From: a virus
Lineage: Duplodnaviria; Caudoviricetes
IMG/VR virus record: IMGVR_UViG_3300020048_000114
Coordinates: 6,437-70,436 of that record
Reading direction: 5' to 3' (one strand)
Length of the DNA: 64,000 bases
Part shown: positions 6,251-58,789 of the stretch, piece after piece
Layout of the letters: each line of letters begins with the position of its first letter
Position numbering within the stretch: the stretch's first letter is position 1
Notes under the pieces: model-generated
The model's input: the letters and a program-made list of their open reading frames with translations, nothing else
The model's database searches: none
What the model was told of the DNA's origin: nothing
Made by a program: the position numbers and the translations under genes

Positions 6251-8056
6251 TTATGGTTGTTTTTTCCATTCATATTTTAAATTCCCACAGTCCCAGATTC
6301 TATCATAACCATTGAGTTGCATGTTTTCCCATTCGGTTAAGTTTGGATCAAATGTTATAAGTTTTTTTGACAATTCCGATTTTCTAAAATTATATCGGTG
6401 TTTTAACTCATATGGGTTATTTGATTTGAAATACCAGTAATTAGGTGGAGACTGTTTTACTTTTGTAAATCCTATTTTATCATATAGCGCATTTAATCCA
6501 GAGTATCTTATGTCGGCAAATGTTGTTATTTTCGATGGATTATGGTTTTTTATGAAGTGTGATATGAATTTTCCAGCAATTCCGATCACAGATGTTTCTC
6601 CAACGCAGAATCTATACATTTCATATTCACCAACTGTTGGATTCTTTGTTCCAAGAGCAACTCTGGCTCCACCAAATGTCATAACCGAGACAAGGGTGTT
6701 GTTATAAAATGCTCCAAGCTTTATCGATGATTTATCCGATCCTTGGATGTGATTTTTGTTCAAAAAGTTAATACATTCTTTTGAGGGTATCTCTTTTATT
6801 ATACAATTTCTTGCGTATATGGGTTTTAAATCTCGCATTTTAAGTATGGATTTTAGTTTATTTTTTACTATTTCTTGGTTGTTAATCCATTCATTTTCGA
6901 AAATATGAATCAGTCTTATTCCAAGTTTTTCACATTCCAACGTTTTATTTAAGTGATATGATCTGTCTTTACCGCCCGATGATTCGGAATGCCAATAGAT
7001 TCCGTCAAATTCAATAGCAAGTTTTTTTGATGGAATATGGATGTCAAGTTCATATGGTGGAATTATTTGACGAGTTCCTTGTATAACTTCTTCCGATGTT
7101 AATGATTTTACATATTCAAATACTTCATTTTCGAGTTCGGATTTTGCTATTGGAAAACAAACTTTGCATCTTGGAATGTTTCCTGAATATAGATCGTCTT
7201 CAAATTGACTTTCACATTTATTACATTTGAATTTATATTTGTTATCGTGTTTTGATCCAATATAAGCCTCTCTATCAAACATCGGAGTGCATATACCATT
7301 CAATCTATCTCCATCAAACAACAGATTTACAAAGTTTTGTCTTAGTTTCAATTTGGATTTATTTTTATGCAATTCTGTCTGTGAAATATTTGTCACCCCA
7401 TATTTTTCATTCAATGAATTTAACATTTTTTCTCTATCTCTCAATGGTGTATCAACTCCATATCTTTCCAAGTTTGTCTTTTTAATTGTTTCTTTTACTT
7501 CATCCGATTGGGTTGCAAATTCAAATCCGTATTTGTCTTTAATTGATGATTTTATTTTTTCTGACGTTTCGATTGATGCAAATCCCTGTCCACCGAAGTT
7601 TTTTATTGCGGTTTCCAAACTTTTCTTTTTTATGTCCTCGTTTTGTTGAGCATATTCAACACCATATCTATCTAACATGGCTTTTCTAAATTTTTCGCCA
7701 TATTCTTCTGTTTTGGAATAATGATCGACTCCATATTTTTCCATGAAAATTGACTTCATTTTGTTTTTATGATCGTCGGTTTTTGTGTGACTATCAACTC
7801 CATATTTTGATATACAAGTTTTTTTAGCCAATTCAACTTTTTTAACATTAACTTCAATGTCGTTGGCAGCACATTTGGAACAACAATATTTTTGATTTCT
7901 ATATTTCCTATGTGAAAATTCAATCAGACACGTTTTACAATTTGATGTTGTAAACGACTCGTTTTTTCTTGAAACATCTCGGCATTTCATTGAACAATAA
8001 TGTTTATTTATTGTATCTGTTTGACAGACCTTACATTTGTTCATTGATTTCTCCAT
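6251..8056 (-). mobile_element. Hef-like endonuclease gene, copy 1 (Zn ribbons + KYGV repeats + Vsr-like nuclease + GNAT/Mom-like C-domain)
   Basis: CxxC...YCSxxC, KYGV repeats, LAIEFDGIYWHSE, LIHIFENEW, IYARNC, NHIQG, TFADIRYS, GYDRIWDCG. Confidence 0.8.
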
Positions 8057-8111
8057 ATAGTATTTTGTATTTGAATATAAATATAGACCAACAATACATT
8101 ATACGCATAAA

Positions 8112-8139
8112 AAATCCACCAATTTTTGTTGGTGGATTT
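8112..8139 (-). terminator. Rho-independent terminator after tail sheath
   Basis: aaatccaccaa-6 nt-ttggtggattt hairpin followed by a U-run on the minus strand. Confidence 0.75.
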
Positions 8140-8161
8140 GAGTTAACAGATGAAAACTTTC

Positions 8162-11125: not shown

Positions 11126-11139
11126 GGCTTTATTTCCTT

Positions 11140-11832: not shown

Positions 11833-11854
11833 TAAATATAAGTATAAATAAAAA

Positions 11855-13461: not shown

Positions 13462-13941
13462 TTATTGTGTTGGTCTTTCGACGATGTTTAGATTTGCGAC
13501 ATCACTGTAAACGGTGTTACATATGATTGAATGTGATTTGTCGGCCTGTCCTCCGAGCAATTGTTCTTGGACAACATTGTCTATTTCAAAATATTTATCA
13601 TTCCACAAAATGTAGTCTCCGCTTTGGGGATAAAACTGTAATCTCTCCAACTCAGCTTCCAGGAATTTAAATATGATGTTTTGACTTCTATCAGGACCAA
13701 AATTTTCGGAAGCAGTCTGCATGTCAGGACGTTCAGCTAAGTTTGATATATCAACACCTGCATAGAAAAGTTTTTCTGTGTTTTCGTCTGTTTCTCCGTA
13801 AATATTAGTCTTTGTTTCAGTTGCAATTTTGAACAGTGTCACAATGTTCTCAATTACGTCGTCCAACAATTCATTGTTTATGCTTCGAATGAATCGAATG
13901 TCTCTTGGAGAGAAAAATTTTCCTCGGTTTAATGATGCCAT
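13462..13941 (-). CDS. Neck/head-closure protein (T4 gp14-like)
   Basis: NIYGE, FYPQSGDYILWNDKYFEIDNV; adjacent to the gp15-like gene. Confidence 0.7.
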   Translation of the reverse strand: MASLNRGKFFSPRDIRFIRSINNELLDDVIENIVTLFKIATETKTNIYGETDENTEKLFYAGVDISNLAERPDMQTASENFGPDRSQNIIFKFLEAELERLQFYPQSGDYILWNDKYFEIDNVVQEQLLGGQADKSHSIICNTVYSDVANLNIVERPTQ

Positions 13942-16900
13942 TACAATAAATATTGGAAATATGATTTATATTTGATTTGTTCTTCAAATAGTGGTTCGTC
14001 AAGATCAGGCACAGGTGCAGGAGGATTCTCAGACAAATCTTTCTCTATTATAGCAGCAAGTTCTGGATAAACTTCTTTTGTTTTATCAACGCCAAATCTA
14101 TTGGTTAAGACTCCCCACACTCCCTTTGCAGATTCAATTCCTCCGCTTGCAGCAAGATCAACCATAGCTTTCGGATAGTCGCTCGTTTTCTTTCCAATCC
14201 CTCTTGTATATGACACTCTGAATATGGCGAATAAACATGAATTTGCTTTATTAGGGGTGTTCCATAATGCAGGAGGAATTTCGGAGACGTTATCTATAAC
14301 CCTCTCGTTTATCAGATGATATACAACTTCACTTGGTTCTTTTACATTTTCAAAAGATTTTGGAGGGAACTGCGTCAGTGATGTTCTTGCATGTTCTCTT
14401 GTCCAAACGATATAATTTTCTAAATATTTGTCTGGTTTTTCTTCTATTCTTTGTCTTAGTATTGGGTCAAAATCATTTGGAAGTTTATACTTTTCAACGT
14501 ATGCACGCATAATATTCAAACCGGAATCAACTATAGACGTTGCCTTTTCCATCAAAACCGGAGGAATAATAAGTTCTGGCATATTTTCTTTTATGATCGA
14601 CACAACCGCTATCGAAGAATCATATTCATCCTCCAACAAGAAATTTAATATAATCTGTGGAACGGGCTGTTGTTTTTCTAAGAAATATAACATCAGTTTT
14701 GATATACTGGTTGGGTTGTTTTCCAGTTTTTGAAAATATATATCAGGTATATTCTGTGGAGGTATGTTGTTTTGTTTACATATCTCAGCGAGAACTCTTC
14801 CACTGATCGATGTGAATTTTTCGACGGGAATGTTCTCAAGTGACATGCCAGATTTGACAAAAATTCTCAGAGCCGAACTTGGTGTCCTTGTTATTATATT
14901 CTCTATGATGTTTTGAGGGAAGTCGCTTATCTTCGATCCATTCTTCATAGCAAATTCTATGAAGGCTGATATTTCATGTGCATCCTCGGACATTTTTAAT
15001 ATCAGCGATTCTGGAATATTTATAAGTGGTATTCCGTCTTCGATCATATAAAATGAAACGATTCTCGATGTTCCTGCATCTCCCGATTTCGGACTCGACA
15101 CTGCATTTATCATAGTTGATATCGATGGGATATCAAATATTTTTAACTTTTTCTTTTCTCTAAAAAAATCAATATATTTATACGCAGTATAACTGTTCAT
15201 TTTCTCGGTGACAGTTCTTTCCAACCACTCGGTCGGAATTTTTGTCATGTTGGAGTTCATCATTCCCGATACAATATTTGTAAGTGTTATGATAGGAAAC
15301 GTGTCAAATGCTTTTACGAGACGGGGATTAATTTCCTGTCTGTCATTCTTTGTGTTCTTCATCAAGATTTTAACATAGTAGTTAGTATCTTTTACATGAG
15401 TTCTGGTAGGGTCATGTGGATCACTTTTAACAAAACTATTTTTTATAGTGTTGATATGTTTGAACCCCTTTGGAGAAAAGAACACTGCCTGCATTGGTTC
15501 GTTGCTGTGGATAATACCTTTACCTGATTTATCTGCTGCACCGTATATTCCCAATTTTTCAAATATGACTCTCCATTTTTTAGGAGCGGTTGTTCTTGAA
15601 CTCCACGTATCGCCTGTCAAAAATATTGCTGCCATTCTGGTGACATTCCACAATTTAGTTCCATAATCACTTAGCTTTGCGTCTTGTTCCCATTTGTCTA
15701 TGAGAAACCTCTTGATATCATGAGTATCCCATTTTCTGTCTCCCGAGGAAGTAAATGATTTCCTCTTGCTTTCAGGAGCATCCTCGAAAATCATTTCCAC
15801 GCACATGTTCATGTATTTAACATAATCAGACCCGGACAACTTAGAAATATCGTTAATGAAATGGTCCGAGCTCTGTTTGAGAACCTGTATATATGGACGT
15901 TCTGATGCAAATGGAAATGTATTTTCATCGACATGATTCCAGGCTTCTTTCAAAGGATATGCGTAGATTCCAAATGGTGTATCGAACTTGGTATTGTAAT
16001 TGAATCTCAAATCTTCCAAGTTGGTGAATGATATGTATATGGATGGATCATCTTTATATTTTGATAATGCAGCTATATTATGAAGCTTGGGATTTTTTTC
16101 TGGATGTGATCTAGCTTCGTCAACAATGGATTCCGTTATCATTTTTTTGATAAACGTTGACACCAAGGATGGAACTTTAATATGGGAATTGCTTAAAATA
16201 TTTCCATAAAATTGTTTATTTGCAACAAAGAATTTTTTCATGTCTCCCATTTGATCGTCGTGTATATCTATCGATCCATCGGAATTCATTTTTACGTCTT
16301 CATATTGACTGGTAATCATCGGAAGCATCAACTTCATCATCCATACAGGAGGTGTTATAAATCCTTTTTTAACAAGTAGTTTTCTTATATCTTCTGTAAC
16401 AACTCCCCATATTGGAAGATTTGAATTCATCATCTCGGAGAATGCCTTCAACTTGGTTTTCGGTTCACCTGCAACGGCAACCAATTTATAATTTCCACTT
16501 TTCTGTTTTCTCAAAGCGACGAATCCGGTTGGTTCTCCAATAAACGTCCAATTTCTTACTCGGTCGTCAAATCTTTCTCTATCCCAAGATTTTCCTGTTG
16601 CTGATATATATTGTTTTTGAAAGACATTAAATAGTTGATCGTTATCGACATCTTGACTGTGAAATATTCTTTCCTGTATTTGATTTGTGTTTTTTAATAA
16701 CATATCCAAAAGGATTTTATTAACGATCAAATATTTCTTGTTGAGACCCACTTGTGAGTCTCCGATAGAAAACGATCCATCGTCGTTTTGTTTTAGATGT
16801 TTGTATTTTTCTTCCAATTCCGGCAAGATTTTTCCTGATATTTCCTTCGGTGCTTCTACAAATCCTCTTTTCATGAGGGATTTTTTTGCGTTATCATCCG

Positions 16901-17186
16901 ATAGAGTCCAGATGGGTATATTTAAAGAATTTAATTCATCGAAAGCTTTTATTTTGTCACGAACGTTTCCTGCCATCGCAACCAATTTATTATACCCATT
17001 GTTTTGTTTTTTGTATGCCAGAAATCCCTCTGGTTCACCGACAAAAACCCAATTTTTTATTTTGTTGAAAAATTTATCTCTATTCCACGATTTTCCTGTT
17101 GCAGAAACATACTGATTGTAGAAGACATCAAACAGTTTATTTTGATCTTCATCCTTGGCGTGGAATATTCTTTCATCTAATGACAT
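13941..17186 (-). CDS. Large multidomain protein (1081 aa) with a duplicated ~167-aa N-terminal domain and helical C-terminal repeats
   Basis: RIFH...SATGKSW...NW.F.GEP.GF occurs twice. The third domain starts after ITESIVDE. Confidence 0.7.
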   Translation of the reverse strand: MSLDERIFHAKDEDQNKLFDVFYNQYVSATGKSWNRDKFFNKIKNWVFVGEPEGFLAYKKQNNGYNKLVAMAGNVRDKIKAFDELNSLNIPIWTLSDDNAKKSLMKRGFVEAPKEISGKILPELEEKYKHLKQNDDGSFSIGDSQVGLNKKYLIVNKILLDMLLKNTNQIQERIFHSQDVDNDQLFNVFQKQYISATGKSWDRERFDDRVRNWTFIGEPTGFVALRKQKSGNYKLVAVAGEPKTKLKAFSEMMNSNLPIWGVVTEDIRKLLVKKGFITPPVWMMKLMLPMITSQYEDVKMNSDGSIDIHDDQMGDMKKFFVANKQFYGNILSNSHIKVPSLVSTFIKKMITESIVDEARSHPEKNPKLHNIAALSKYKDDPSIYISFTNLEDLRFNYNTKFDTPFGIYAYPLKEAWNHVDENTFPFASERPYIQVLKQSSDHFINDISKLSGSDYVKYMNMCVEMIFEDAPESKRKSFTSSGDRKWDTHDIKRFLIDKWEQDAKLSDYGTKLWNVTRMAAIFLTGDTWSSRTTAPKKWRVIFEKLGIYGAADKSGKGIIHSNEPMQAVFFSPKGFKHINTIKNSFVKSDPHDPTRTHVKDTNYYVKILMKNTKNDRQEINPRLVKAFDTFPIITLTNIVSGMMNSNMTKIPTEWLERTVTEKMNSYTAYKYIDFFREKKKLKIFDIPSISTMINAVSSPKSGDAGTSRIVSFYMIEDGIPLINIPESLILKMSEDAHEISAFIEFAMKNGSKISDFPQNIIENIITRTPSSALRIFVKSGMSLENIPVEKFTSISGRVLAEICKQNNIPPQNIPDIYFQKLENNPTSISKLMLYFLEKQQPVPQIILNFLLEDEYDSSIAVVSIIKENMPELIIPPVLMEKATSIVDSGLNIMRAYVEKYKLPNDFDPILRQRIEEKPDKYLENYIVWTREHARTSLTQFPPKSFENVKEPSEVVYHLINERVIDNVSEIPPALWNTPNKANSCLFAIFRVSYTRGIGKKTSDYPKAMVDLAASGGIESAKGVWGVLTNRFGVDKTKEVYPELAAIIEKDLSENPPAPVPDLDEPLFEEQIKYKSYFQYLL

Positions 17187-17895: not shown

Positions 17896-19107
17896 TTATC
17901 CGATATAGATAAACATTGGAGCTTTCATCAAGGTTTCATTTAATTGTTGAGCCTGAGCTGCCTGTTTTTCCATAATAGATGAACGGCTTGTTGCTTCCAA
18001 ATTCTCTCTCAATTGTGTAATCAACTCGGTCTTGTCAGCTGCTGCTTCCTGTCTCAATTCTCCACCATCCAAAGTAACTTCTGATCCTGGAATAGGGATT
18101 GTTTGATATTTCTGTCTTATTGCTCCCAGTAATTCTTTACATAGTGCCAAGAAATACTTTCTTATCCATTGTTTTCCTGGCTCATTAATGTTCATATAAG
18201 GAATGACTTCGTAAGGAACATTGCTGTAGTCCCCTATAACGGTTGAAGATTGACTGCCGCTGTAATATTGACTCGATGAACTGGTTGACATGTTTGACCC
18301 ACTTGGGAAGAATATTGCACCATCTCTATCTTTTGTTACAACATAATCGAAATAAACCGTCATATTTCGGTTAGGAACTGGAAATAATTTCAATTTATTG
18401 TTTATCACCTCAAAGCTCCAAGCAGACTTTCTAACCATGTCGTTAAATTCAATTGCTTGACCCCTTAATAAATCTTCAAATATTGGAGTCATTAAAAACT
18501 GTGTGGCAGGGGAGAATCCGGCAAATCCCATTTCGTTCATGATGTTACTGTAACTCATTCCTGTCATGGAAAACGGATCATAAATACGTGCAAATGCTGG
18601 TGGTGGATTATGGAACACTCTTTTGATTTCGATTCGTGATCCACTTTCAACTGTGTCCCCCCAAATTGCCTGTAAATCATATGTTTGTATGGCCGGCGAC
18701 ACCTCGATTTCCCCACGCTTCCAATCGACATGTCCGCCATATCCATTTTCCGTTCCATATGATTGAGCCAAATTTATTTGAAATGGAAGGCCGACTCCTT
18801 GGATATTCTGTTGGGTGACATTTATTGTTGTTGGTTGACCCTGTAGAAGGCCTAAATTATTCCGTATATTGAATTGATTCACCTGTGCTCCATACTCAAG
18901 GACCGACTCTTCAAATGCAGCGTAAAATGAAAAATCTATAAGTTCCACATCTTGAATAGGATACCCAAGTCGCCGAGCGGCCCAATCTGCAATTTTCGGT
19001 CCATCCAATTGAAAACGTGGATCTGAGTCGAAAAATCCAAATGGGGTTTTTCCGGTGATTGTCGAACCGGAGCCCGGCCACCTTACTTTGTCTTGGTCTT
19101 GAATCAT
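17896..19107 (-). CDS. Neck protein (T4 gp13-like head-tail adaptor)
   Basis: WAARRLGYPIQDVEL, WIRKYFLAL.KELLG.IR.KY..IPIPG.EVTLDG, PMFIYIG. Confidence 0.8.
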   Translation of the reverse strand: MIQDQDKVRWPGSGSTITGKTPFGFFDSDPRFQLDGPKIADWAARRLGYPIQDVELIDFSFYAAFEESVLEYGAQVNQFNIRNNLGLLQGQPTTINVTQQNIQGVGLPFQINLAQSYGTENGYGGHVDWKRGEIEVSPAIQTYDLQAIWGDTVESGSRIEIKRVFHNPPPAFARIYDPFSMTGMSYSNIMNEMGFAGFSPATQFLMTPIFEDLLRGQAIEFNDMVRKSAWSFEVINNKLKLFPVPNRNMTVYFDYVVTKDRDGAIFFPSGSNMSTSSSSQYYSGSQSSTVIGDYSNVPYEVIPYMNINEPGKQWIRKYFLALCKELLGAIRQKYQTIPIPGSEVTLDGGELRQEAAADKTELITQLRENLEATSRSSIMEKQAAQAQQLNETLMKAPMFIYIG

Positions 19108-19139: not shown

Positions 19140-20855
19140 TCAATTAAATGTCATTTCGTATTTAAGATTCCCACAATCCCAGATACGATCATAGTTATTG
19201 TTTAACATATTGTCATATTCATTTAATTTATCGTCATATACATTTAATTTTTTGGATAGGACGTTTTTTCTAAAAGAGAATCGATGCCATATGTTAATTG
19301 GGGATGATAACTTAAAATACCAGTAGTTTGGAGTGGTCATTCCAATTAACTTAAAACCGATTTTATCATACATAGAAGATAAACCACTGTATCTTATATC
19401 AGCATATGTGATTATCTTGAGAGGTTTTATGTTTTTTATAAAATGATTTAATAATTTGCTTGCTCCACCGATAACAGTTTTGGATGAACAATATCTGTAA
19501 AGTTCATATTCATTTGTTGACGGGCCCTTGTTTCCAAGAGCAACTCTCAGTGGACCAAACGACATAACAGAAACGATTTCTCCGTTGAATTTTAAACCAT
19601 AATATACGCTCGATTTGTCATTTCCTTGTATGTGGTAATTGTCCAAAAAGATCATTTTTTCTCGATTTGTTATTTCAACAATTTCACATTTTCTTGCATA
19701 TGTTTTATTTGATGAACCATTCATAATATTCAGTATTTTGTTTTTGACTATGTTTTGTTTGGTGATCCACTCATAATCCCAAATTTGAATTAGTTTTATT
19801 CCAAGTTTATCACACTCAATTGTTTTATCTATGTGATATGATCGGCTTCGTTTTCCAAATGACTCAGAATGCCATGATATTCCATTGCACTCTATAGCAA
19901 TTTTCTTTTTTGGAATATAAATATCCAACTCTTTACCGTTTAATATAGACCTGTCATTTTCAATTATTTCAACATTTATATTTGATTTTATAAATTCAAC
20001 AACTTGGAGTTCGAACTTGGAACGGTTTTGTGGAAAACAGTTGATACAAATTGGAATTTTTCCACTCTCCAAATTATCTTCAAATTCGTGACCACACTTA
20101 TTACATTTAAATTTATATTTTACAGATTTGCCGTCTTTTTTACCTCCAACATAATCATCAATTGTGAACAATGGAGAACAATTGTTATTTCTAATTGGAT
20201 TATTCAATAAATTGTTAAATGCTTCTGATAAAGTTTTTAATTTTAAATCGTTTTTTACACATGTCCGTTGTGCTGTAGATGTCACACCATATCTTTCGAG
20301 GTTCGTGCGTTTGGCTTTTTCTATAACCGTTTTACTTTTTGATGGTGTGTTTGACCCATATTTTTTGAAATTGGTTTCTCTTATTTTTTGTTTCACGACT
20401 TCATTTGCAAAAACGTTGTCACATTTATATTTTGATTGCACAGAGTTTTTTATTTTTTCAGATATTGATGGGGATGTGAATGAACACGTCGATCCATATT
20501 TATTCAAAAAAGTTTGTTCCCTTTTATTTTGTATTTCATCACTCTGGCTAGGATTTTCAACACCATACTTTTCCAACATTGTTTTTCTTGTCTTCTCCAT
20601 CCTGTTATTGACAAGTGTTTTATCCTTTTGGTGTTCAGAAGAACATTTTTTACAACAATATTTTCCATATCCAATCGGAAATCCATTAAACGGAGTGTCG
20701 TTAAAACAATTTGGACATTTCCTGTTAACCACCGGGTTGATTAGGTTGTATAACTCTTCGTTTGTTTTTTTGTGAAACATCATAAAGTGTCGAGACAACG
20801 ACAAATTATTTTTACAAACCTTTTCGCAAATTGGACATTTATATTGATCAATCAT
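19140..20855 (-). mobile_element. Hef-like endonuclease gene, copy 2
   Basis: C2H2 finger, KYGVENPSQ repeats, IAIECNGISWHSE, IQIWDYEW, YARKC, YADIRYS, YDRIWDCG. Confidence 0.8.
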
Positions 20856-21086: not shown

Positions 21087-21731
21087 ATGATAAAATTAAA
21101 AACATTGATATTTGAGGTTGCGGATTTGCCCCCTCCACAAGTAAAGTTTGAGATGCCCGCACAGACAACATCCAAAAAACCTGACTATTTTGTTGCAAAG
21201 AACCATGATTTCTCAAAAAACTCCGAAATCAATACCAATATCGATTACAAAAAATTGGAAGATATCATAAAAAAATTTGAAAATAATAAGGAGTATAAAG
21301 GTGGGGGGTGGAATAAATCCAAACAAAGATGGTTTCCACATAAAAGCGTTGAGGGTGGTCTTCCTACAATTGCATATGGACATAAACTTCTCCCAGGAGA
21401 AGATTTCTCAAAAGGTCTCACAGAGGATGAAGCTATAAAACTTCTACGAAAAGACCTTCAACGTGCAGAATCGATTGCAAAGGGAATGATAAAGAACTGG
21501 GATAAGTTGCCATCCGATTATAAGATCGCATTAATCAATTCTGTTTATAGGGGTGGGAGAAACAAGGACATAGGACCGAAAGCAATATCATATATTAACA
21601 GTGGTCAATTTGAAAAAGTTCCATCTGAATATCTGAATCACAGAGAATACAAAACAACCTCGAATAAGGGTGTTAAAGACAGAATGGAGTGGAATGCAAA
21701 AGTGTTCAAAAAATACTCAAACCTCCCATGA
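21087..21731 (+). CDS. Phage lysozyme (GH24-like) with a MIKLKTLIFE leader
   Basis: SVEGGLPTIAYGHKL...GLTEDEAIKLLRKDL, ALINSVY. Confidence 0.8.
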   Translation: MIKLKTLIFEVADLPPPQVKFEMPAQTTSKKPDYFVAKNHDFSKNSEINTNIDYKKLEDIIKKFENNKEYKGGGWNKSKQRWFPHKSVEGGLPTIAYGHKLLPGEDFSKGLTEDEAIKLLRKDLQRAESIAKGMIKNWDKLPSDYKIALINSVYRGGRNKDIGPKAISYINSGQFEKVPSEYLNHREYKTTSNKGVKDRMEWNAKVFKKYSNLP

Positions 21732-22525: not shown

Positions 22526-22968
22526 AATACAAAGATTTTTACACAGACGAGTTAAACGAAGACCCAGAAGTTTTGATGGGTGAATACCCAAGATGGGACT
22601 ATGATAGTTATCTATTCATCGGAACGACGGATGGTAAAGGACTAATATACACATCCATAAAACAGAATCCGCACATGATCCACGGAAATCTTATGAGAGC
22701 TTTCGTTAAAAAAATTGATCAAAACGGAGTGGATGTTAAAACAATAGGAGATGTTGCGGATAAACAATTTTCATTTGATCTATCCGGCGCAGTTATACCA
22801 AAACAAACTGGAATAGAAAAAACCCTGATATCCTTATGGGATAAACAGGGCTTGATACTAAAACCAATTCTTAGAGATTTGTTGATTAAGATAGGTGTTT
22901 CCGGTGCAGCCTCGTTGGAGGTTGCGGATAGAAATGACAAAGACAATTCACAGACGCAAGATTTTTAA
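22522..22968 (+). CDS. Hypothetical protein with a MKYKDFYTDELNE leader
   Basis: ATGA-coupled to the upstream gene; leader nearly identical to that of the 21728 gene. Confidence 0.65.
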   Translation: MKYKDFYTDELNEDPEVLMGEYPRWDYDSYLFIGTTDGKGLIYTSIKQNPHMIHGNLMRAFVKKIDQNGVDVKTIGDVADKQFSFDLSGAVIPKQTGIEKTLISLWDKQGLILKPILRDLLIKIGVSGAASLEVADRNDKDNSQTQDF

Positions 22969-23651
22969 TTGGTCTTGGACGTTGGGATCAACCACAATCC
23001 GTTCGAGAAAATCTTTTCTTTCAAGAGAGGGTAAAGTTCAAAAATTTTCAAGGATTCAAGCGTATTGTGTTTGAACATCTTGAATAATTCTTCCCTCGTT
23101 CTCTCCGAACTGACATTATCCAACATATTGATGAATTTTGGATTGTGAAGAATTCTATGAATTGGCATGGAGATTCCAAAATCCTTCGTAACGGAAAATC
23201 TAACAGCTCTGAGGAGACGGAGTGAATCCTCTCGCATTCTGTCTTCCGTTTCTCCGACGCATCGAATAACTTTGTTTTTGATGTCTTCCTGTCCATTGAA
23301 TGGATCGATTAGATTTCCGTCATCATCTTGAGCAATTGCGTTGCAGGTAAAATCCCGGCGCGACAAGTCATCAAACAACGTTCCATTTTCAACAGAATCG
23401 GGCCGACGACCATCGGAATATGCGCCTTCTTTACGACACATTACGAAATCAACTCCGCCGAGGATGTTATCAACCGCACGAATTGTGAAGAATTCAGGTT
23501 TTTCAACCTTGATGTCACAACCACGGGATTGAATAGCTTCCTTCATTTCGTTATACGATCCAGCCTCAACCGAGAAATCAATATCCTTCGATTCGATTCC
23601 CATGATCAAATCACGAACAGCTCCTCCTACACGATAAAATTTTGCGTTCAT
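22965..23651 (-). CDS. tRNA nucleotidyltransferase (CCA-adding/poly(A) polymerase family), compact form
   Basis: VGGAVRD..MG..SKDIDF, DLSRRDFTCNAIA, EDSLRLLRAVRF, VSSERTREE. Start refined to 23651. Confidence 0.9.
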   Translation of the reverse strand: MNAKFYRVGGAVRDLIMGIESKDIDFSVEAGSYNEMKEAIQSRGCDIKVEKPEFFTIRAVDNILGGVDFVMCRKEGAYSDGRRPDSVENGTLFDDLSRRDFTCNAIAQDDDGNLIDPFNGQEDIKNKVIRCVGETEDRMREDSLRLLRAVRFSVTKDFGISMPIHRILHNPKFINMLDNVSSERTREELFKMFKHNTLESLKIFELYPLLKEKIFSNGLWLIPTSKTN

Positions 23652-23694
23652 ATTTAGGAGAGTGGACCACAAGAAACAATAAGTCAATAAATTT

Positions 23695-25371
23695 TTGATC
23701 GATCGGTTTTATTTGGTATATTTACCATATATGACACCAGTTACAAATAAATTAGTTATCTCAGAAGAAGAGTCAAAAATATGTAAAATCGATGGAAAGA
23801 AATTTAGTTCATCTCGTAAGATGGTGTGGCACGTTAGAAAAACACATAAATTGTCATTTGAGGAATATATTATAAAATATTACTATGGCGGAAACCGACC
23901 GGTATGTTTGAAAACAGGAAATTTTCTTTCATTCAAAGGAAATAAACTTGGTCCTTGGTTCACCGATTATTCAAAAAACAATTTCCCAAGAAAACATCAC
24001 ACAGAAGAGACAAAAAATAAAATTAAAGATGGGTGTGAAAAGACATCAATGGAGAAATATGGTGTGAAAAATGTATTTTTATCCGATTGGTGTAAGGAGA
24101 AGTCAAAGACAACGATTGTTGAACGATATGGTGTTGATAACATAATGAAACTCGATGAATATAAAAAATTCATCCCAAGAACAACTGAATCATTACAAAA
24201 GGCAAAAGAAACAAATCTTAAAAAATATGGATCACCAACATACACATCGACAATTGAATGGAAACAAAAACTGAGAGAACTATCATTTATTAAATATTAT
24301 GATAATTGGGAAAATTATTTAAAGTCTTTATCCGATAGAAAAATTGATTGTGTCCACGGTTCAATATCTGATATGAAGAATAAGAATCCTATTTCTTATA
24401 AATGTCAGATTGATGGGTTTGAATGGGTAGAAACAGATTTGTTGCAACCAATTTGTCCAAAATGTTTGGAAACTGGAAATCTATCAAATAGATCAAAGAT
24501 GGAAACTGAGATGTGTTCATGGTTGAAGTCTATAAACATTGATTTTAAAATGAATAATCGGTTTAAAACAGAAACAGGAACATATGAGATAGATTTCTAT
24601 ATACCAAATAAAAACATCGGTATAGAATTAAATGGAAACTATTATCATTCACAGAATGGTGGCGGAAAGAATCGCAAATATCATATAGACAAATTAAATT
24701 CAATAAACTCAATTGGAATAGAATTGATACAAATATTCGAAGATGAGTGGATAAAGAAATTTCAAATAATAAAAGACAAGTTATTATCAAAGTTGGATAG
24801 AGGATCGTTCAAATCAATATACGCAAGAAATTGTAAGGTCATCAATATAGAAAATAATATAGCAAATGATTTTCATGAATTGAATCATATACAAGGAAAA
24901 TCAAATTCAACCATTCATTTTGGTTTGTTTGATGGAGATTTGATGGTTTCCGTTATGAGTTTTTCTGGTCTTAGACCTTCTCTCGGAAACAAAAAGATAA
25001 AAGGACATTATGAATTGGTTAGATACTCATCATTATTAAATCATTCCATCATTGGCGGTTTTTCCAAATTAATATCACATTTCATAAAAAGAAATAATCC
25101 GGTAAAGATAATAACATATGCTGACAGACGGTATTCCGGATTAAAAAACAACGTATATGAAAAGACAGGATTCAAATTCGTTGACATTGGTTCTCCGAAT
25201 TATTGGTATGTCAAAAAATTAGACAGAAAACATAGGTTTAATTTCACCAAATCAAAATTGGTAAAGGATGGATTTGATTCTAACAAAACCGAATGGGATA
25301 TCATGAAATCCCGTGGATGGGATAGGATTTGGGATTGTGGTCACTTAAAATATGAGATGTTGATTCATTGA
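23695..25371 (+). mobile_element. Hef-like endonuclease gene, copy 3 (probable start ATG 23731)
   Basis: C..DG..H..H finger, KYGV repeats, IGIELNGNYYHSQ, IQIFEDEW, YADRRYS, GWDRIWDCGHLKYE. Confidence 0.8.
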
Positions 25372-25577: not shown

Positions 25578-27224
25578 TTGTTGTTCATTGTTACAAATAA
25601 TTTCGTTTATCCAGACTTCTATCGATATGTATTATGGATGAAACGAAAAGTGAATAAGATAGTTTGTAAAATTTGTAACAATGAGTATTCAACCGTTGGG
25701 TTTTTTGGTCATTTAAGAGACACACACCAAACCTCTCCGGATGAATATGTTAAACAACATGGAGAGTATAGAACAAAGGTTTTATCTTTAAAAAATTATG
25801 AATCCGCAGATTCAAATTTCGAGTGTCTGTTGGATGGAAAAAAATTCAAATCGGAGAGGATGTTATCTGGCCACATCAAGAGAAATTTCAACATGTCTAA
25901 GAACGAATACGTCAAAAATGTTGTTTTTAAGGATGGTATTCCAAAATGTAAGTGTGGATGTGGAGATGATGTGGGTATAATAAAACAATATCCATATAAA
26001 AGAGAATACATTTCTGGACACAATTCTGTCGGTGAAACCAATCCGATGTATGGTAAAACTCACAGCGTTGATGCGATTAACACCATGATAGAAAAGGCAA
26101 ATTCGCGGGTGGAATTATACAGAGAAAATAAATGTCCTCTCCCTATGCATTCAAAAGAATCTTTGATTAAACGTGGATTGATCTATTCAAATAAAATGAT
26201 GAATTTGAAACAAATAAAATACAACGTTGAAATATTGGAGAGGAATGGTGATTTTCTAAGATTTAAGTGCTTGAAATGCAATAAAGAACATTCTCAATAT
26301 CATACATCATATTTCACTTGCTCAAATTGTTATCCACCCATTAAATCAAAAGGCGAAAACGACTTGAAATCTTCTATTGAAACAACATTTAACATTGAGT
26401 GTGTGCAGAATTATAGAAAGCTTTTTAATGGAACAATGGAATGTGATATTTTCATTCCGTCGAAAAATATAGGAATAGAATATAACGGAATATACTATCA
26501 CTCGGAATTTTCTGGAAATAAACATAAAAATTACCACATAGATAAGACAAACAGTTTTCTTAACAAGGGGGTTAAAATACTGCACGTTTTCGAGGATGAA
26601 TGGTTGAATAAAAGAGATATAATTTTATCAAGAATAGGTTCTTACATAGGAAAATACGGAAGTAAACACCACGCCAGAGAGTGTGTAATAAAAGAAGTTT
26701 CTATAAATGATTCACGAGATTTTTTAACAAAGAACCACTTACAGGGTAGTGACAAACATCAAATTTCATATGGACTATACAAAGATGGTTGTTTATTATC
26801 CATAATGACATTCTCAAAATTAAATATATCAAAGGGATCAATTCACATAGATGGTCATTATGAACTTAGTAGATTCTGTAATTTATTGAACACGTCGATC
26901 TCAGGGGCATTTAGCAAACTACTTAAACACTTTATAAAAAACAACACATTTGAAAAATTGATAACTTATGCAGATATGAGATGGTCGGATCAAACAAAAA
27001 ATGTTTACATTATCAACGGATTTAATTTTGTGTCCAAATCAAGTCCAAATTATTTTTACACAAAGGATCACAAGAATAGATTGAACAGATTTGGATTCAG
27101 GAAATCGGAATTGATTAAATCAGGTGGCGATCCATCAAAAACAGAAATTCAAATAATGAGGGAAATGGGATATGATAGAATATGGGATTGTGGACATTTA
27201 AAATATGAATTGTTAACTCGTTGA
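25578..27224 (+). mobile_element. Hef-like endonuclease gene, copy 4 (probable start ATG 25638)
   Basis: C2H2 fingers, CKCGCG...YISGHN, IGIEYNGIYYHSE, LHVFEDEW, YADMRWS, GYDRIWDCGHLKYE. Confidence 0.8.
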
Positions 27225-50146: not shown

Positions 50147-52819
50147 TTAATAAGTATCTTTGAAAATCGATTCCGTGGATAAATCTCCATCATTGATTAA
50201 ATCCATGTTGTTCAATTTTGTTTTCATTTTTTCACATATCTGTTCTTCTTGCGTTCCTGCTACGAAAATAATTTTTTGCATTGCTTTTGTTTTGGCTTCT
50301 GCACGCCATACTCTCCCAAGAGCTTGTTTGAGTCCGACAGCGGAAGGTCCGGGAGATATTAACGCAATTCTTGGGTATTGTCCATTCAAATCGTGTAAAG
50401 ACAATCCAGCGCCTCCTGCAGATATATTTACAAGAATTATCCGTGACTTGTCGGCTTGAAAATCATCTATATGTTTTTGTCTGTTTTCCGTGTCTCCTCC
50501 CCAAATCATACATTTGGTATTTAATTTATCGGAAAGTGCTTTAATGGTGTCCGTGAAATTAACTATGATAACAACACTCATACCATCAGCAATGGCTTCT
50601 TCTGCCATATCAACGAATAGAGGAACCTTCAACAATTCACATTGCTGTCTTGCTCTCAACTGTGCCGTTAGTGCGTTTGTTTGTTTTTCTCTATCACTTT
50701 TTAGAGTCTGTGCGAGAACACGTAATTCGGCTCCCATTTCAAAAAATATCTGATTTATTTCCGCTTTCGATTTCTCATCCATGTCATATGATTCGGCAAT
50801 GATATCACAGTCAGGAAAATCAGGAATATCAGTTTTTTTGATTCTAGCTCCCCTCTCTTTGAATAAATCAAAGTTTAATTTTTTCAGTGCATTTTTTGAT
50901 CCATTGAATTGCCAACCAAATCGACCTTGTTCACAATCATGCTCTAATAAAAATTCATTAAATGCTTTCGATGTTCCTTTATGGAGTCCCAAAATTTTTC
51001 CAACGGTCTTCAATTCTATTGGGTTAATCGCAGATGTTGCCGAACAACATAGTATTTTAAATCCTGCGTTGTGAGCAGATACAGCCATCTCAGAATTTTG
51101 AGTCTTTCCATCTTTTAATTTATGGCTTTCATCAAATATAATTAAAACATTTTGTGGGTCTTTTATCTTCCACACAAACTTTTCAATTGTTGATTTTTTG
51201 CTAGTTTTCTCCCACGTCGCAATTTTTTTATATTTTCCGGTTCTCAATCCTTCGTAATTTATTACAAACTCAACCGGCATACCAAAATGGTTTTCAATAA
51301 CACGTTTCCAAGATGTTATAACCGCTTTTGGACATACAACGCCAACTCGAAGACCCAACTCACGTGCAACTCCAACCGCTACATATGTTTTTCCGCTATT
51401 ATGAGTCACAAAAAAATTATCCATTAAATACCTACCATCACCATCTAAGGAAAACCCGTAAAATTCACCAACGGTTTGTTTCTCAACTTTAAAACCAACA
51501 ACGCTTGCATCCTTTTTCTGGATTCTTGGTTTTGCAATTTTTCTTTTAATTTTACATGGAATTTGATTGATGTTTCCAAGTATAGAACAAGAGTGATATG
51601 TTCCACTTTTTCCATTATTTTTGCATGTGTGAACCCTACTTTTATCAACCACAAAAAACCCAAGTGACCTTGCAATGAACGATGTGTCATCCCTCAAATT
51701 TTTGGATTTGGATGTGAAAGAGTAACACCCTTTGTCATATGAACCATCGGTGTCAATCAACCCAGCCAAAATTTGCAATCTAACTTGTCTTGTATTTATT
51801 TTATATTCTGTTGGAATAAATCTATTTTCGCATTTGACAGGAAACAATCCAATTGATCGCATATTTCTAAAAAGGTCCGGCGAGGATGTTATTCTTTTTG
51901 TTATATTTTGACTTGTATTCCCAAGTGTCCAATTATTTTTTTTACAATGATCATTCAACATTTCCCACATTTCTTCGTCATTCGATGTAAATGATATACA
52001 ATCTTTTGTGCTGAGGCCACCATCTCCCAATAAAGCACCCAATAAATATGGATCGATTGTAACACCTTTTTCATTCCACGAATCAACTCCAACAGTGAAA
52101 ATCTTCATCGCATGTTTTGTGGTTTTGCTCAAGTTAATGTAATCCTTTACTTTTATATCGTAAATTTTTCCATACTCATAACCCCCAGTCCACTTGTGCG
52201 TTTTTGAAGGTCCATTTGTCAATTTGACGGTTAACAAATGGTTCCCATTTACAGAAAAATTTGGTCCTTTGACAGGAACAATATTATACATCTGTTCAAA
52301 ACCGTGATGTAATTTTGTGATTATTTGTGGTCCTTTCCATCCCATGACACGATCTCCGATACGAAGAGTTTCAACATTTCTCGTTGATCCGTCAAACATA
52401 AGAATTCCTTGTCCTTTTGTGTGACACCCTGTATCCGATCCGTCTATCGCAGCTCCATATTTTCTGATAGAAGCCGATAGTTGAGAAACCAACGTTGGTT
52501 GCCATTTTCTCAACCCCTGTTCATACTTTAAAGGAGCCAATTCAAGACTGCTTTTGTCAGGAACTATTATTGGTTTTTTACCTTCCGTGGTTCCTATGGT
52601 TGAAAAATCGTTTTGGTTTTTCTGCCATTCTTTCAGATACCACTCTCCAGTTTCATCTTTTTCAACCGCGAATCCACGCAGACGCATTTTTGCTTTGTTG
52701 GATTCCCAAAAAACAAAAAATCCAGGCAAAACATCTTTTGGAATACACCAAGAACGAACGAACATAGGTCCGTTCCTAGTGTATATCTTAGATGATCTTT
52801 TCCATACTATATCGAACAT
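50147..52819 (-). CDS. SF2 (SNF2/DEAD-like) helicase containing an intein
   Basis: After splicing: DTG-SGKT (Walker A), IFDESH, SATS, LVNISAGGAGLSLHD, QALGRVWR. Confidence 0.9.
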   Translation of the reverse strand: MFDIVWKRSSKIYTRNGPMFVRSWCIPKDVLPGFFVFWESNKAKMRLRGFAVEKDETGEWYLKEWQKNQNDFSTIGTTEGKKPIIVPDKSSLELAPLKYEQGLRKWQPTLVSQLSASIRKYGAAIDGSDTGCHTKGQGILMFDGSTRNVETLRIGDRVMGWKGPQIITKLHHGFEQMYNIVPVKGPNFSVNGNHLLTVKLTNGPSKTHKWTGGYEYGKIYDIKVKDYINLSKTTKHAMKIFTVGVDSWNEKGVTIDPYLLGALLGDGGLSTKDCISFTSNDEEMWEMLNDHCKKNNWTLGNTSQNITKRITSSPDLFRNMRSIGLFPVKCENRFIPTEYKINTRQVRLQILAGLIDTDGSYDKGCYSFTSKSKNLRDDTSFIARSLGFFVVDKSRVHTCKNNGKSGTYHSCSILGNINQIPCKIKRKIAKPRIQKKDASVVGFKVEKQTVGEFYGFSLDGDGRYLMDNFFVTHNSGKTYVAVGVARELGLRVGVVCPKAVITSWKRVIENHFGMPVEFVINYEGLRTGKYKKIATWEKTSKKSTIEKFVWKIKDPQNVLIIFDESHKLKDGKTQNSEMAVSAHNAGFKILCCSATSAINPIELKTVGKILGLHKGTSKAFNEFLLEHDCEQGRFGWQFNGSKNALKKLNFDLFKERGARIKKTDIPDFPDCDIIAESYDMDEKSKAEINQIFFEMGAELRVLAQTLKSDREKQTNALTAQLRARQQCELLKVPLFVDMAEEAIADGMSVVIIVNFTDTIKALSDKLNTKCMIWGGDTENRQKHIDDFQADKSRIILVNISAGGAGLSLHDLNGQYPRIALISPGPSAVGLKQALGRVWRAEAKTKAMQKIIFVAGTQEEQICEKMKTKLNNMDLINDGDLSTESIFKDTY
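51398..52426 (-). mobile_element. Cis intein (343 aa) with a LAGLIDADG endonuclease, in the helicase Walker A
   Basis: DTG|CHTKG ... YLLGALLGDG, LAGLIDTDG ... FYGFSLDGDGRYLMDNFFVTHN|SGKT. Confidence 0.95.
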
Positions 52820-54226: not shown

Positions 54227-54274
54227 GTTTTTTCAGATTAACATGAGAGAATACAAATGGTCAATTTATAATAA

Positions 54275-54754: not shown

Positions 54755-54819
54755 GATTTAATTTTTGGTTAAGTTTAACATCTATATATATATATAACCT
54801 ATTCAAGAAAGAGACAAAA

Positions 54820-56304
54820 TTATATTTTTGACCATAACCATTTAAAATTTCCACAATCCCAAATTCTATCATAACCGTTATTTTTCATATTATCCCATTC
54901 TGATAGAATTTCATCAAATTTGGACAATCTCCCAGAGAGTTTGTGTTTTTGAAAATTCATTCTCCCCAGTCTGTGTTTATAATCTTTTTCTATATAGTAA
55001 TAATTGGGCGGGGTGATGTTATTTAAAGAAAACCCAAGTTTCCCATAAATTTCTCCTGTGAAGAATCTTCTATCCGAGTATGATATTATTGTATTTGGTG
55101 AATATTTTTTTACAAAATATGAGAACATTTTACTTGCTCCTCCATGTATTTTATGTCCAAGTTTGTTGCAAAATCTGAACATTTCATACTGGACATTTTT
55201 ATCGAACCTGGAAGAACCAAACGTCATAACGGAAACGAGTTCTTCATTGTGGTATAAACCAATTTTAATAGATGATTTGTCATCTCCTTGTATGTGGTTT
55301 GTCTCCAAAAATTTGTTCTTTTCGGTTGATCCAATTTCTTTTACTATACAATCTCGACCATTAAGTTTAATTTTGAAAACTCCAAATTGGTTGGCCAATA
55401 TTGACTTTACAATATCTTGTTTGTGGACCCATTCATCTTCAAATAAATGTATCAATTTTATTCCATGAAAAGCACACGACTTTGTTTTATTCAAATGATA
55501 CATTTTGTCTTTGTTATTCGCATTTTCTGCGTGCCAGTATAATCCGTTGTGTTCAATTGCAATTTTTTTATCTTTAACGTAGAAATCCAACTCCTTTCCA
55601 ACCAACACTGTTCTATCGGAGATTTTTATTGTTTCGGTTGGGATCAATGTTGATAAAAAATCATATATTTGTTGTTCAACTATGTTTTTTCCTGTTGGAT
55701 TGCATGTTGGGCAAAAAATCGTTTTGTGGTTGTATATTGTTGTTTCGAATTTGTTGTCGCAACACATACATTGGAATAGATATTTGTTTTCCCATGTGTA
55801 TCCGACATAATCTTTCCGATCAAACAGTGGAATCAGTTTTCTTTCTTTACTAACAAATAGTATATTATCGTAATTATTGTTTGATAACGTTGATCGTATT
55901 TTTTCTTTTATATCGATTCTTTTGCATGGATTATCAACGCCATAATTTTTTATGAAAGTTTCCTTCATCTTTTCGATGTTATTATATTTCACATCACCAT
56001 ATCTTTCCAATTTGGTTGCGTTAACTTTATCCATTAAATCTTTATTGGATAAGGCATTTTCAACTCCATATTTCTCCAACATAGATTTTTTGAAATTTGA
56101 TTTTGTTGCATCTGTTGTCATTGGATGACCACCGTATTTTTTTTGGAACGTGTCTTTTTGTTTTTTAATCATCCCCTCTTTAATAACAGGGTCTTGATTC
56201 TTGCAACTTTTGGAACAGTATATTCTTTTTCTAGTTCTCTCTTGATTCGGAACGAAAAATTCTTTATTGCATGTTTTACATGTTTTGGATATTAGATTTG
56301 ACAT
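54820..56304 (-). mobile_element. Hef-like endonuclease gene, copy 5
   Basis: CKTC...YCSKSC, KYGV repeats, IAIEHNGLYWHAE, LIHLFEDEW, YSDRRFF, GYDRIWDCG. Confidence 0.8.
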
Positions 56305-56456
56305 TGTTTTGGTTTGAATGGTGTGTATTAATTAGTAATTATAGAGTGGTTATTAAAAAATGTCAATAATAATTGTTATATTCTTTTATTTATTATAAAT
56401 AACACATATAAATCAGTGTTATATCAAAAATATAAACCCTTAAATAACACAATATT

Positions 56457-56948
56457 ATGGCAGAATTACTAGATCAAAACGAAATATTTTGGACTCCATT
56501 TGAACCCAAACAGGCCAACAGATTCATCATGTATATCGATGGAATCCCATCATTCATGGTAAAAATGACTGATAGACCAAAGTGCACATCCGGCGTTGTT
56601 ACGCTCGATCACATCAATTTGCAGAGAAAAGTCAAGGGAAAGACCACATGGCAAGATATTACAATTTCATTGTATGATCCTGTCGTTCCTTCTGCCGCAC
56701 AGGCAGCAATGGAATGGATAAGATTGTCGCATGAAGCAGTCACCGGTCGTGACGGATATGCTGATTTCTATAAAAAAGATATCACACTGAACTCCCTTGG
56801 GCCCGTTGGAGACAAGGTTGAGGAGTGGACCATATATGGAGCGTTTGTGACAACATTTGATGGTGGTGCCTTGGATTACTCAACAGCAGACCAAGCAGTT
56901 AATGTTACCCTCGGAATTGCCTACGACTACGCAATTTTGCAGTTCTGA
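56457..56948 (+). CDS. Tail tube protein (T4 gp19-like)
   Basis: EPKQANRFIMYIDGIP, KGKTTWQDITISLYDP, YKKDITL..LGPVGDKVEEW, YDYAILQF. Confidence 0.92.
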   Translation: MAELLDQNEIFWTPFEPKQANRFIMYIDGIPSFMVKMTDRPKCTSGVVTLDHINLQRKVKGKTTWQDITISLYDPVVPSAAQAAMEWIRLSHEAVTGRDGYADFYKKDITLNSLGPVGDKVEEWTIYGAFVTTFDGGALDYSTADQAVNVTLGIAYDYAILQF

Positions 56949-56998
56949 TTCAGCATCACATTCCGTCACAGATTCGTAGATTTATTGGTGTTTGGCAC

Positions 56999-57033
56999 AT
57001 CTCCAGCATATTTATTTGTGTTGGGGATTTTTT
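56999..57033 (+). terminator. Terminator after tail tube; loop contains TATTTATT
   Basis: atctccagca-tatttatttg-tgttggggat (2 G-U pairs) followed by a T-run. Confidence 0.65.
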
Positions 57034-57058
57034 GTGACCAAATTTCCAATGAACAAAT

Positions 57059-58789
57059 ATGGAAAAAATAGAATTTAAAGGAAAAAAATATAATACAAAA
57101 TATTATTCAATAAGGAATTGTGTGTTATGTGATAAACAATTCATTGGATTGGTTTCAAGAAATCCGAGGTTTTGTGGAAACGCTTGTAGCACAAAATCAA
57201 CAGCAAACTCAAAAGATAGAATTGATAAAATCAAATCAACTAAGCTAGAACGATATGGTTCCGAGACATATGTGAATCCAGAAAAAGCAAAACTAACATG
57301 TTTTGAAAAATATGGAGTTGATAACGTTTCAAAGTCTCAAATTGTGATTGATAAGATAAAAGAGACCAATCGAGAAAAATTTGGATCAGATTGGTTTTTT
57401 GCGTCGGAGGTTGGGAAGGAAAAAATAAAAGAATCGAACATGGAGAAATATGGTGTCGAAAATCCCTCTTCAATCAACGAAGTGAAGGAAAAAAGAAAAA
57501 ATACAATTATTAACAAATATGGAAGAGAAAACTTTTTTTCGAATGTTGAGGGGAAAGATTTGGTTAAAAATTCCTTAATGGAAAAATACGGAATAGAGCA
57601 CCCGTCGGAATCTCAAGAATTTCTATCCAAAAGAAGTAAAAATAATATACATAATAATTTCGATAAAATTGTTTTTAAACAGAATATAATTGAAGTGTGT
57701 GAACCCATGTTTTCAATTGAAGAGTATAAAACAACAGATAGAAAAAATCTATATAAATTTAAATGTAAGAAATGTGAGAGTGTTTTTGAAGACTCCATAA
57801 ACGGCGGAAAAACACCAAGATGTTCTACATGTTTTCCCAAAATTACAGGATCATCAATTGCTGAAAAGGAAATATTGGAATTTATAAAATCATTATTACC
57901 GACCGATGACATCCATCACAACGTCAGACCATTTGAAAACAAAGGTCTCGACATCTATATACCAAACAAAAAAATCGCAATTGAATATAATGGACTGTAT
58001 TGGCACAGTGAAAATCATGGAAATCGTGGAAAAAATTATCACATAGACAAATCCAATACATGTTTGAAAAATGGAGTTAGATTAATTCAAATATTTGAGG
58101 ACGAGTGGATCAACAAACAAGAAATCGTAAAATCAAAAATAAAATCCATACTGGGCGTTAGATCGATTGAAAAATCCATATATGCAAGAAAAGTTAATAT
58201 TCAAAGAATATCTAGCAGTATGTCGAGTCCATTTCTTGATAAATACCACATACAAGGAAAATGCAATTCTCCAATTAGATATGGGGCTTTTTTTGGGGGG
58301 GAGTTGGTTGGAGTTATGACGATTGGAAAACTTAGAATATCCATGGGACATAGAAAAAATCTGGACGGTGAATTTGAATTAATTAGGTTTGCAACATCCA
58401 AAAGTGTAACGGGGCTTGCGTCAAAAATGTTATCCGTTTTTATAAAAGAATTCTCCCCCACAGCTATAACATCATATTCAGATAATCGATGGTCCAGTAG
58501 AGAAAACGCTATGTATGCAAAAATAGGATTTGAAAAAATTTCAGAAACTCCGCCTAACTATTTTTACATACAACATGGATATCCGAAAAGATACCATCGT
58601 TTTGGATTTGCAAAACACACATTAAAAAATAAGTTAAAAACTTTTGATTCTGATATAAGCGAGTGGGAGAACATGAAAAGTAATGGATATGATAGAATAT
58701 GGGATTGTGGGACAACTAAATGGGTGTGGAAAAAATACAGAATCTTCAACAAATACGATAAACTCAAATCCATTGGAATTGAAAGCTAG
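57059..58789 (+). mobile_element. Hef-like endonuclease gene, copy 6
   Basis: CVLC...FCGNAC, KYGV repeats, IAIEYNGLYWHSE, LIQIFEDEW, YSDNRWS, GYDRIWDCG. Confidence 0.8.

Follow-up and report, generated by a model that had tools for sequence, protein, structure and literature searches.

Six Hef-like genes in a structural gene region

The 64-kb stretch of IMG/VR virus record IMGVR_UViG_3300020048_000114 analyzed here (referred to as the window) contains six related genes, c1 to c6, whose products join a variable, presumed DNA-target reader to a Vsr-like nuclease and a GNAT domain that resembles the Mom protein of phage Mu. The six open reading frames (ORFs) encode 494-601 amino acids (aa) each and add up to 10,062 nucleotides (nt) including stop codons, or 15.7% of the window. 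Their products align over the whole length with pairwise identities of 30-44%, none of the reading frames is disrupted, and a profile built from them matched the 70.4-kb virus record at exactly these six places. An initial annotation of the window had proposed a six-copy family of this size, covering ~16% of the window, and the ORFs, the alignment and the profile search bear this out. Judged by their sequences, c1-c6 are full-length members of the Hef-like family, and we argue below that they are probably free-standing homing endonuclease genes.

The genes lie beside conserved structural genes. c1 (positions 6251-8056, minus strand, 601 aa) is located directly 3' of the tail-sheath gene. c3 (23695-25371, plus strand) and c4 (25578-27224, plus strand) are arranged in tandem between a tRNA nucleotidyltransferase gene and the major capsid gene, with c4 convergent with the 3' end of the latter. 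The lengths of c3 and c4, at most 558 and 548 aa, depend on upstream TTG starts, and initiation at an internal ATG (codon 13 in c3, codon 21 in c4) is at least as likely. c5 (54820-56304, minus strand, 494 aa), the copy whose structure we modelled, and c6 (57059-58789, plus strand, 576 aa) bracket the tail-tube gene (56457-56948, plus strand), a conserved neighbor; c5 is divergent from this gene and c6 is directly 3' of it. The remaining copy, c2 (19140-20855, minus strand, 571 aa), is found between genes at 17896-19107 and 21087-21731, which are adjacent to each other in three related contigs (L248, L250 and L251).

Full-length matches to PHROG 3339 ("homing endonuclease"; 1e-89 to 1e-129) were obtained for all six proteins, which also matched PHROG 559. 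A tblastn search with c5 matched 419 phage records, many of them labelled "Hef-like homing endonuclease". The closest homologues of c5 share 84% and 77% identity with it. The genes matched by tblastn include those of Acinetobacter phage 133, Campylobacter phages (10-12 places each), Dickeya phages of the LIMEstone type (F-Lim genes), coliphages and the PA5oct-like Pseudomonas phage MIJ3 (5 places). Previous studies reported up to nine Hef-like genes in Campylobacter group III phages (PMC4546147) and four in LIMEstone1 (PMC3296691). The likeness to Hef-like genes that are multicopy in some Campylobacter phages, which had been noticed in the initial annotation, is thus confirmed. As the tblastn matches always cover both the nuclease and the C-terminal domain, the fusion of the two is ancestral to the family and not peculiar to this phage.

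The family includes a characterized enzyme, Hef of phage U5, which is reported to cleave nrdB and to replace mobE at that locus (PMC2988022). In Escherichia phage CJY920, we found a Hef-like ORF of 530 aa that carries no annotation and shares the core (L166, 2227-3819, plus strand); it lies between nrdA and an intron-split nrdB. This is the locus reported for U5 Hef, making the CJY920 ORF its positional equivalent.

Reader, nuclease and GNAT domains

The six proteins share a common architecture, in which the variable reader is followed by a Cys4 zinc ribbon, the Vsr-like nuclease and the GNAT domain. Nearly all of the 59 columns that are invariant among c1-c6 fall within the C-terminal 330 residues. 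Identity among the copies is 22% in the reader, 42% in the nuclease, 42% in the GNAT core and 52% in the C-terminal part, making the GNAT domain as conserved as the nuclease (42-52% versus 42%). The N-termini had been described as variable and composed of Zn-fingers and KYGV repeats; the variability is evident from these values, but Pfam places the KYGV repeats (DUF7487) in five of the six copies only. The exception is c4, in which two ROS/MucR-type zinc fingers and a NUMOD3 motif take the place of DUF7487 (Pfam). The longest DUF7487 reader is that of c1, and c2 combines a C2H2-like finger with DUF7487. Similarly, the core motifs listed in the initial annotation serve well as consensus strings but are not strictly kept in all copies (IEFDG in c1, NGISWH in c2, NGRDC in c5).

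In c5, the presumed reader (residues 1-155; 55840-56304, minus strand) consists of an N-terminal zinc ribbon, with a weak YacG-like match, and the helical "KYG" repeats of DUF7487 (Pfam), which were modelled as helices at residues 39-154. Fold searches with the model that includes this reader showed nuclease matches only, as the nuclease domain filled the lists.

The next domain of c5 is a Vsr-like PD-(D/E)XK nuclease of the EDxHD type (residues 205-310; 55375-55692, minus strand), preceded by the Cys4 zinc ribbon at residues 174-203. When compared with PDB sequences, the profile of the six copies matched the catalytic domain of I-Bth0305I (3r3p) at E 9e-6. This structure was also the top Foldseek match of a model of c5 residues 1-310 (pLDDT 87; E 4e-4, TM 0.73, 24-27% identity), followed by E. 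coli Vsr. VIA, an aligner independent of Foldseek, aligned residues 205-310 to 3hrl (DUF559; Z 11.8), 3r3p (Z 11.4) and Vsr (1cw0; Z 10.7). None of the six copies has lost the residues that match I-Bth0305I E170, D196, N208 and H213. The profile search and both structural comparisons therefore agree with the Vsr-type nuclease assigned in the initial annotation. Taylor et al. (2011; PMC3239194) defined the "EDxHD" family and had already listed phage Hef enzymes among its members.

The Mom-like GNAT domain of c5 (residues 312-494; 54823-55371, minus strand) was recognized by profile, fold and residue alignment. Within the model of full-length c5 (pLDDT 89.5), the C-terminal domain is predicted with a pLDDT of 92-98, and the best Foldseek match of this model in the PDB was Mu Mom (8bv8; E 1.3e-6), ahead of generic GNATs. 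VIA aligned c5 residues 317-494 to many GNATs at Z 12-13.8, which establishes the GNAT fold; the alignment with Mom (Z 13.0) was the longest (163 residues versus ~130 for other GNATs) and had the highest identity (15%). Mom was absent at E<=10 when the profile of the six copies was compared with PDB sequences and surfaced by profile-profile and fold comparison only. A weak hhalign alignment to the single Mu Mom sequence (E 1e-3, probability 21%) places Mom residues R111, S124, D149 and R151 on c5 R377, S391, D411 and R413. From these comparisons we conclude that the GNAT fold and the relationship to Mom, both suggested in the initial annotation, are real.

The aligned residues are of functional importance in Mom, where R111, S124, D149 and R151 are essential and a helix-turn-helix (HTH)-like insertion at residues 175-209 is needed for activity (PMC13219725). 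The model of c5 contains an extra segment of ~40 residues with short helices (residues 445-475). The tetrad is complete in c2-c6, and among 77 family sequences the four positions are conserved at 100% (R), 83% (S), 97% (D) and 95% (R). Mom is an adenine N6 glycyl transferase that acts on double-stranded DNA and uses Gly-tRNAGly and not acyl-coenzyme A (acyl-CoA) (PMC13219725), so the acyl-CoA transfer assay proposed in the initial annotation is out of date.

Genomic sites and distribution in related phages

We counted full-length copies at the corresponding sites of related viral contigs with assessable loci. A copy is present upstream of the tube gene in 16 of 71 relatives, downstream of the tube gene in 3 of 61, downstream of the capsid gene in 4 of 80 and downstream of the sheath gene in 3 of 80 (L169, L189 and L190 only), and the c2 site is occupied in none of 78. 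The closest relatives by capsid (79-81%) or tube (71%) identity contain no full-length copy in 130 kb (G001) and 88 kb, nor does the complete 297-kb genome of another relative (G003). The initial annotation had named fixed positions in all relatives as a finding that would speak against mobility; instead, most relatives are without the genes. The arrangement of the flanking genes differs as well. In Hef-less relatives, a homologue of the baseplate protein follows 0.5-1 kb after the tube gene, whereas in the window it is 4.45 kb away, with c6 and three small ORFs in between. In G001, the sheath gene is convergent with the tube gene at a distance of 137 bp; in the window, 45 kb separate the two, and each is followed by a Hef copy (c1 and c6). 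Since even the best relatives share only 71% tube and 82% capsid identity with the window, the insertion boundaries and the target site are beyond definition at the nucleotide level.

Although G001 has no full-length copy, it carries a relic exactly at the c5 site, divergent from the tube gene (L326, 2097-2798, plus strand; 233 aa). The relic is 26% identical to c5 residues 229-491; it has no reader, the catalytic His is missing and the GNAT domain is incomplete. It looks like the degenerate phase of a homing cycle.

In a tree of 33 family members (IQ-TREE, quick search), copies group by genomic position and not by genome. c5 belongs to a clade with 13 further copies from upstream of the tube gene (support 99), c6 to one with three copies from downstream of it (support 98), and c3 and c4 to one with four copies from downstream of the capsid gene (support 98), while c1 groups with c2 (support 98). 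The six genes are therefore old, separately site-bound lineages and not the product of recent duplications. The same neighborhoods recur in cultured phages: in Acinetobacter phage 133, Hef is convergent with gp23, the arrangement seen for c4 and the capsid gene, and Hef-like genes adjoin the tail-tube genes of LIMEstone (F-LimVIII) and Campylobacter phages, including PC5. As a side observation, orientation differs within one clade: c3 and c4 both converge on the capsid gene, and their clade-mates in L002, L014, L043 and L048 are found 3' of it and share its strand.

The window as a whole covers the structural region of a T4-like myovirus, with genes for a T4 baseplate protein, the T4-type portal, the tail sheath and the tail tube. 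Microcystis phage Mel-JY01, Flavobacterium "immuto" phages and a 484-kb uncultured phage have major capsid proteins that are 55-58% identical to the one encoded in the window. At 70 kb, the virus record has an estimated completeness of 22%, and G003, which shares 76% capsid identity, has a complete genome of 297 kb. The source virus is probably a jumbo phage.

Several other features of the window were recorded. The T4-type portal gene (36790-39738, minus strand) contains an intein with an HNH endonuclease and NUMOD3 (Pfam Intein_splicing, HNH_3, NUMOD3 and Portal_T4), and a SNF2/helicase-type gene (50147-52819, minus strand) is split by a Hint and LAGLIDADG intein. Together with the six Hef genes, these two inteins bring the selfish elements in the 64 kb to at least eight. 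A 168-aa ORF (58683-59189, plus strand) that comes right after c6 and overlaps its 3' end has weak matches to HNH-endonuclease PHROGs (4.8e-7); a homologue lies directly 3' of the tube gene in L088 and L130, and this ORF may encode a further small homing endonuclease, also located at this hot spot. The tRNA nucleotidyltransferase gene that abuts c3 (22965-23687, minus strand) is of the CCA-adding type with a PolyA_pol head domain. Though Mom uses the tRNA 3' end, this adjacency is probably a coincidence. No tRNA genes were found in the 64-kb window, which thus gives no local pointer to a tRNA donor. A 1081-aa ORF (13941-17186, minus strand) gave no match in a Pfam search; by eye, it has an N-terminal internal duplication of ~180 residues, with two similar "ERIFH..DQ.LF.VF..QY.SATGKSW" segments.

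Around the tail-tube gene, a sigma-70-type promoter match (TTGACA-17-TATAAT; 56338-56366, minus strand) agrees with the consensus at 12 of 12 positions and lies 34 nt 5' of the c5 start codon, and a terminator-like hairpin (56999-57028, plus strand) separates the tube gene from c6. In promoter and terminator scans of the window, overall site numbers were not above those of shuffled sequences, and the c5 promoter is to be read as a consensus match only.

Proposed homing, possible roles of the GNAT domain and known systems

We propose that c1-c6 are Hef-type homing endonuclease genes, free-standing selfish DNA in an uncultured T4-like phage, probably a jumbo phage. We regard this reading as likely for identity and mechanism jointly, an assessment that excludes the role of the GNAT domain. 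Upon co-infection, the reader would bind a long site in a Hef-less allele beside the insertion point, and the Vsr-type nuclease would break that allele. Recombinational repair would then transfer the gene, together with flanking markers, to the cut genome, amounting to intronless homing with co-conversion.

Two observations weigh against this proposal. The fifth EDxHD position (D222 in I-Bth0305I) varies among the copies, being D, S, N, H, D and G in c1-c6, unlike Y367, H368 and K371, which are invariant. The six copies have an Asp at one of two nearby positions (364 or 370 in c1), which we considered as a shifted fifth catalytic residue; we dropped this candidate, since the commonest pair at these positions in 77 sequences is N/N. 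The second observation concerns the comparison with a neighboring gene that the initial annotation had suggested. While copies do group by site, the presence of tube-upstream copies is strongly clustered on the tree of the tube protein (4 changes versus a shuffle mean of 16.2), and vertical descent with loss fits this pattern as well as homing with co-conversion. We therefore dropped the claim that the distribution by itself proves horizontal mobility.

As for the GNAT domain, the likeliest single role, which we advance tentatively, is that of an active Mom-type transferase that is tethered by the reader and marks an adenine in or near its own site, such that the carrier would stay uncut. Candidate donors would be aminoacyl-tRNA, as in Mom, or acyl-CoA. 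In c1, which has a Gly at the Mom Ser position as do 9% of relatives, immunity might come from sequence differences, or the gene might be decaying. It is also conceivable, if doubtful, that Hef-type enzymes are single-chain "homing restriction-modification" elements, in which one reader would aim the nuclease at the naive allele and tether the Mom-type transferase to the carrier site, where it would aminoacylate or acylate an adenine. If so, self-immunity would be independent of sequence, which would explain how such genes settle beside invariant structural genes and build up to six or more copies. This cut-and-protect idea, raised in the initial annotation, is closely related to a published proposal of restriction and protection by restriction endonuclease (REase)-Mom fusions (PMC7824862).

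A catalytic role for the GNAT domain has several findings against it. The hhalign match to Mom is weak, and c1 is without the Ser. The Pfam Mom model (PF25680) scored only c1 and c5, at 16.5 and 17.3 bits versus a cut-off of 27.1, so that by Pfam's own threshold c1-c6 are not Mom-family members; among 45 family members, it matched five at E<=0.01 (best 3.9e-6). The D-x-R of Mom is altered in Hef-like proteins of cultured phages, reading NRR in Acinetobacter phage 133 and coliphage CJY920 (where Asn replaces Mom D149), DKL in Campylobacter phage PC5, and DRC in Dickeya phage XF4 and Pseudomonas phage MIJ3. As the deviating proteins include the one encoded between nrdA and nrdB, the characterized Hef type may work without the canonical Mom tetrad.

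These findings lend themselves to a different role, in which the GNAT domain would be a non-catalytic module, either a reader that flips adenine or clamps DNA or a dimeriser that pairs two nicking Vsr domains for a double-strand break, with immunity arising from sequence differences, as it does in other homing endonucleases of the free-standing kind. Of the four Mom residues, the Ser shows the lowest conservation, the D or R of D-x-R is changed in cultured phages, and the Pfam Mom score is under threshold. Dimerisation has precedents, as Mom crystallizes as a dimer (PMC13219725) and I-Bth0305I must dimerise to cut both strands (PMC3239194). However, 95-100% of the 77 sequences retain the Asp and the two Arg, the full tetrad is present in five of the six copies and the domain is conserved like the nuclease. 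We consider a non-catalytic module possible but rather unlikely.

We find it improbable that the six proteins are single-chain, restriction-modification-like weapons, whose Mom domain would modify the phage genome broadly while the nuclease degrades unmodified DNA of the host or of superinfecting phages. Such a function has been proposed for the REase-Mom fusions of jumbo phages, five copies of which occur in PA5oct (PMC7824862); the PA5oct-like phage MIJ3 has its 5 places matching c5, and the virus record probably represents part of a jumbo-phage genome. Yet the long, diverged, multi-module readers and the single-site lineages argue for rare, long targets and not for frequent sites. Related complete phages manage without any full-length copy, the finding of a decayed relic at the c5 site is consistent with a selfish life cycle, and U5 Hef is reported to act at a single locus, nrdB (PMC2988022).

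Acylation of a protein or small molecule, for example to disable a host repair or defense factor and thereby favor recombinational repair after the cut, has little likelihood in our view. Many protein N-acetyltransferases match the GNAT fold at the same Z (~13) as Mom, and, on visual inspection of the alignment, the conserved Ser follows a G-x-[GA]-type loop like that of CoA-binding GNATs. On the other hand, Mom ranks first in Foldseek, its alignment is the longest and has the most identity, and the two have in common four residues around the flipped adenine. Finally, it is very improbable that c1-c6 are fixed, domesticated paralogues that benefit the host and have lost mobility, for although occurrences cluster on the tree of the tube protein (4 changes) and all six frames are intact, most relatives, including a complete genome, are without full-length copies, each copy is nearer to same-site copies in other phages than to the paralogues in its own genome, and the closest relative, G001, holds a relic.

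Previous publications already cover the family, including its Vsr-type nuclease, its occurrence in multiple copies and the nuclease-Mom fusion; in a literature search, we found no experimental test of the Mom-like domain in any Hef-type enzyme. Hef-type genes rank with the most common selfish genes of large phages, and the glycyl-transfer chemistry of Mom was solved only recently, so that the question of the Mom-like domain is now directly testable. For this purpose, the window offers six natural variants in one genome, with different readers, known neighbors and one copy without the catalytic Ser. Should the domain protect the carrier site, homing elements would have a new type of self-immunity, and the family could supply programmable, site-directed adenine modifiers. 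Otherwise, the genes would belong to a well-populated and already catalogued class of selfish genes.

Type IIG/IIC enzymes such as MmeI also combine a reader, a nuclease and a base modifier in one chain; they use an S-adenosylmethionine-dependent methyltransferase and recognize short, frequent sites. c1-c6 resemble them only by functional analogy, in that the same specificity could direct both cutting and protection, and unlike in MmeI-type enzymes, Pfam found no methyltransferase domain in c1-c6. With Mu Mom (8bv8), the proteins share a GNAT fold, which may include an extra insertion, and the alignment of R111, S124, D149 and R151 to conserved residues; they differ from it in their low identity (~13-15%), their Pfam Mom scores, their fusion to a nuclease and a reader, and the missing Ser of c1. 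With I-Bth0305I (3r3p), the EDxHD prototype, they share a homologous catalytic domain with aligned E, D, N and H, and c4 has a NUMOD-type N-terminal reader. Unlike c1-c6, I-Bth0305I is intron-encoded, comprises 266 aa with the nuclease at its C-terminus and has neither a GNAT domain nor a zinc ribbon (PMC3239194), and its D222 position is not conserved in c1-c6.

Iyer et al. (2021; PMC7824862) described REase-Mom fusions, several per jumbo phage, and read them as restriction and protection against host or rival DNA. c1-c6 have the same domain fusion and are likewise multicopy, but their site-specific lineages favor homing elements. The greatest likeness is to U5 Hef and the Hef-like proteins (PHROG 3339/559) of Acinetobacter phage 133, LIMEstone (F-LimIII/VII/VIII/X) and Campylobacter group III phages. 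These show full-length homology to c1-c6, including the zinc ribbon, nuclease and GNAT core, and their genes are free-standing beside conserved genes (tail tube, major capsid, nrdB), with several diverged copies per genome. c1-c6 are only 28-45% identical to these cultured-phage proteins, reside in an uncultured T4-like phage that is probably a jumbo phage and belong to a clade that keeps the Mom D-x-R, which is changed in the cultured-phage Hef-like proteins sampled.

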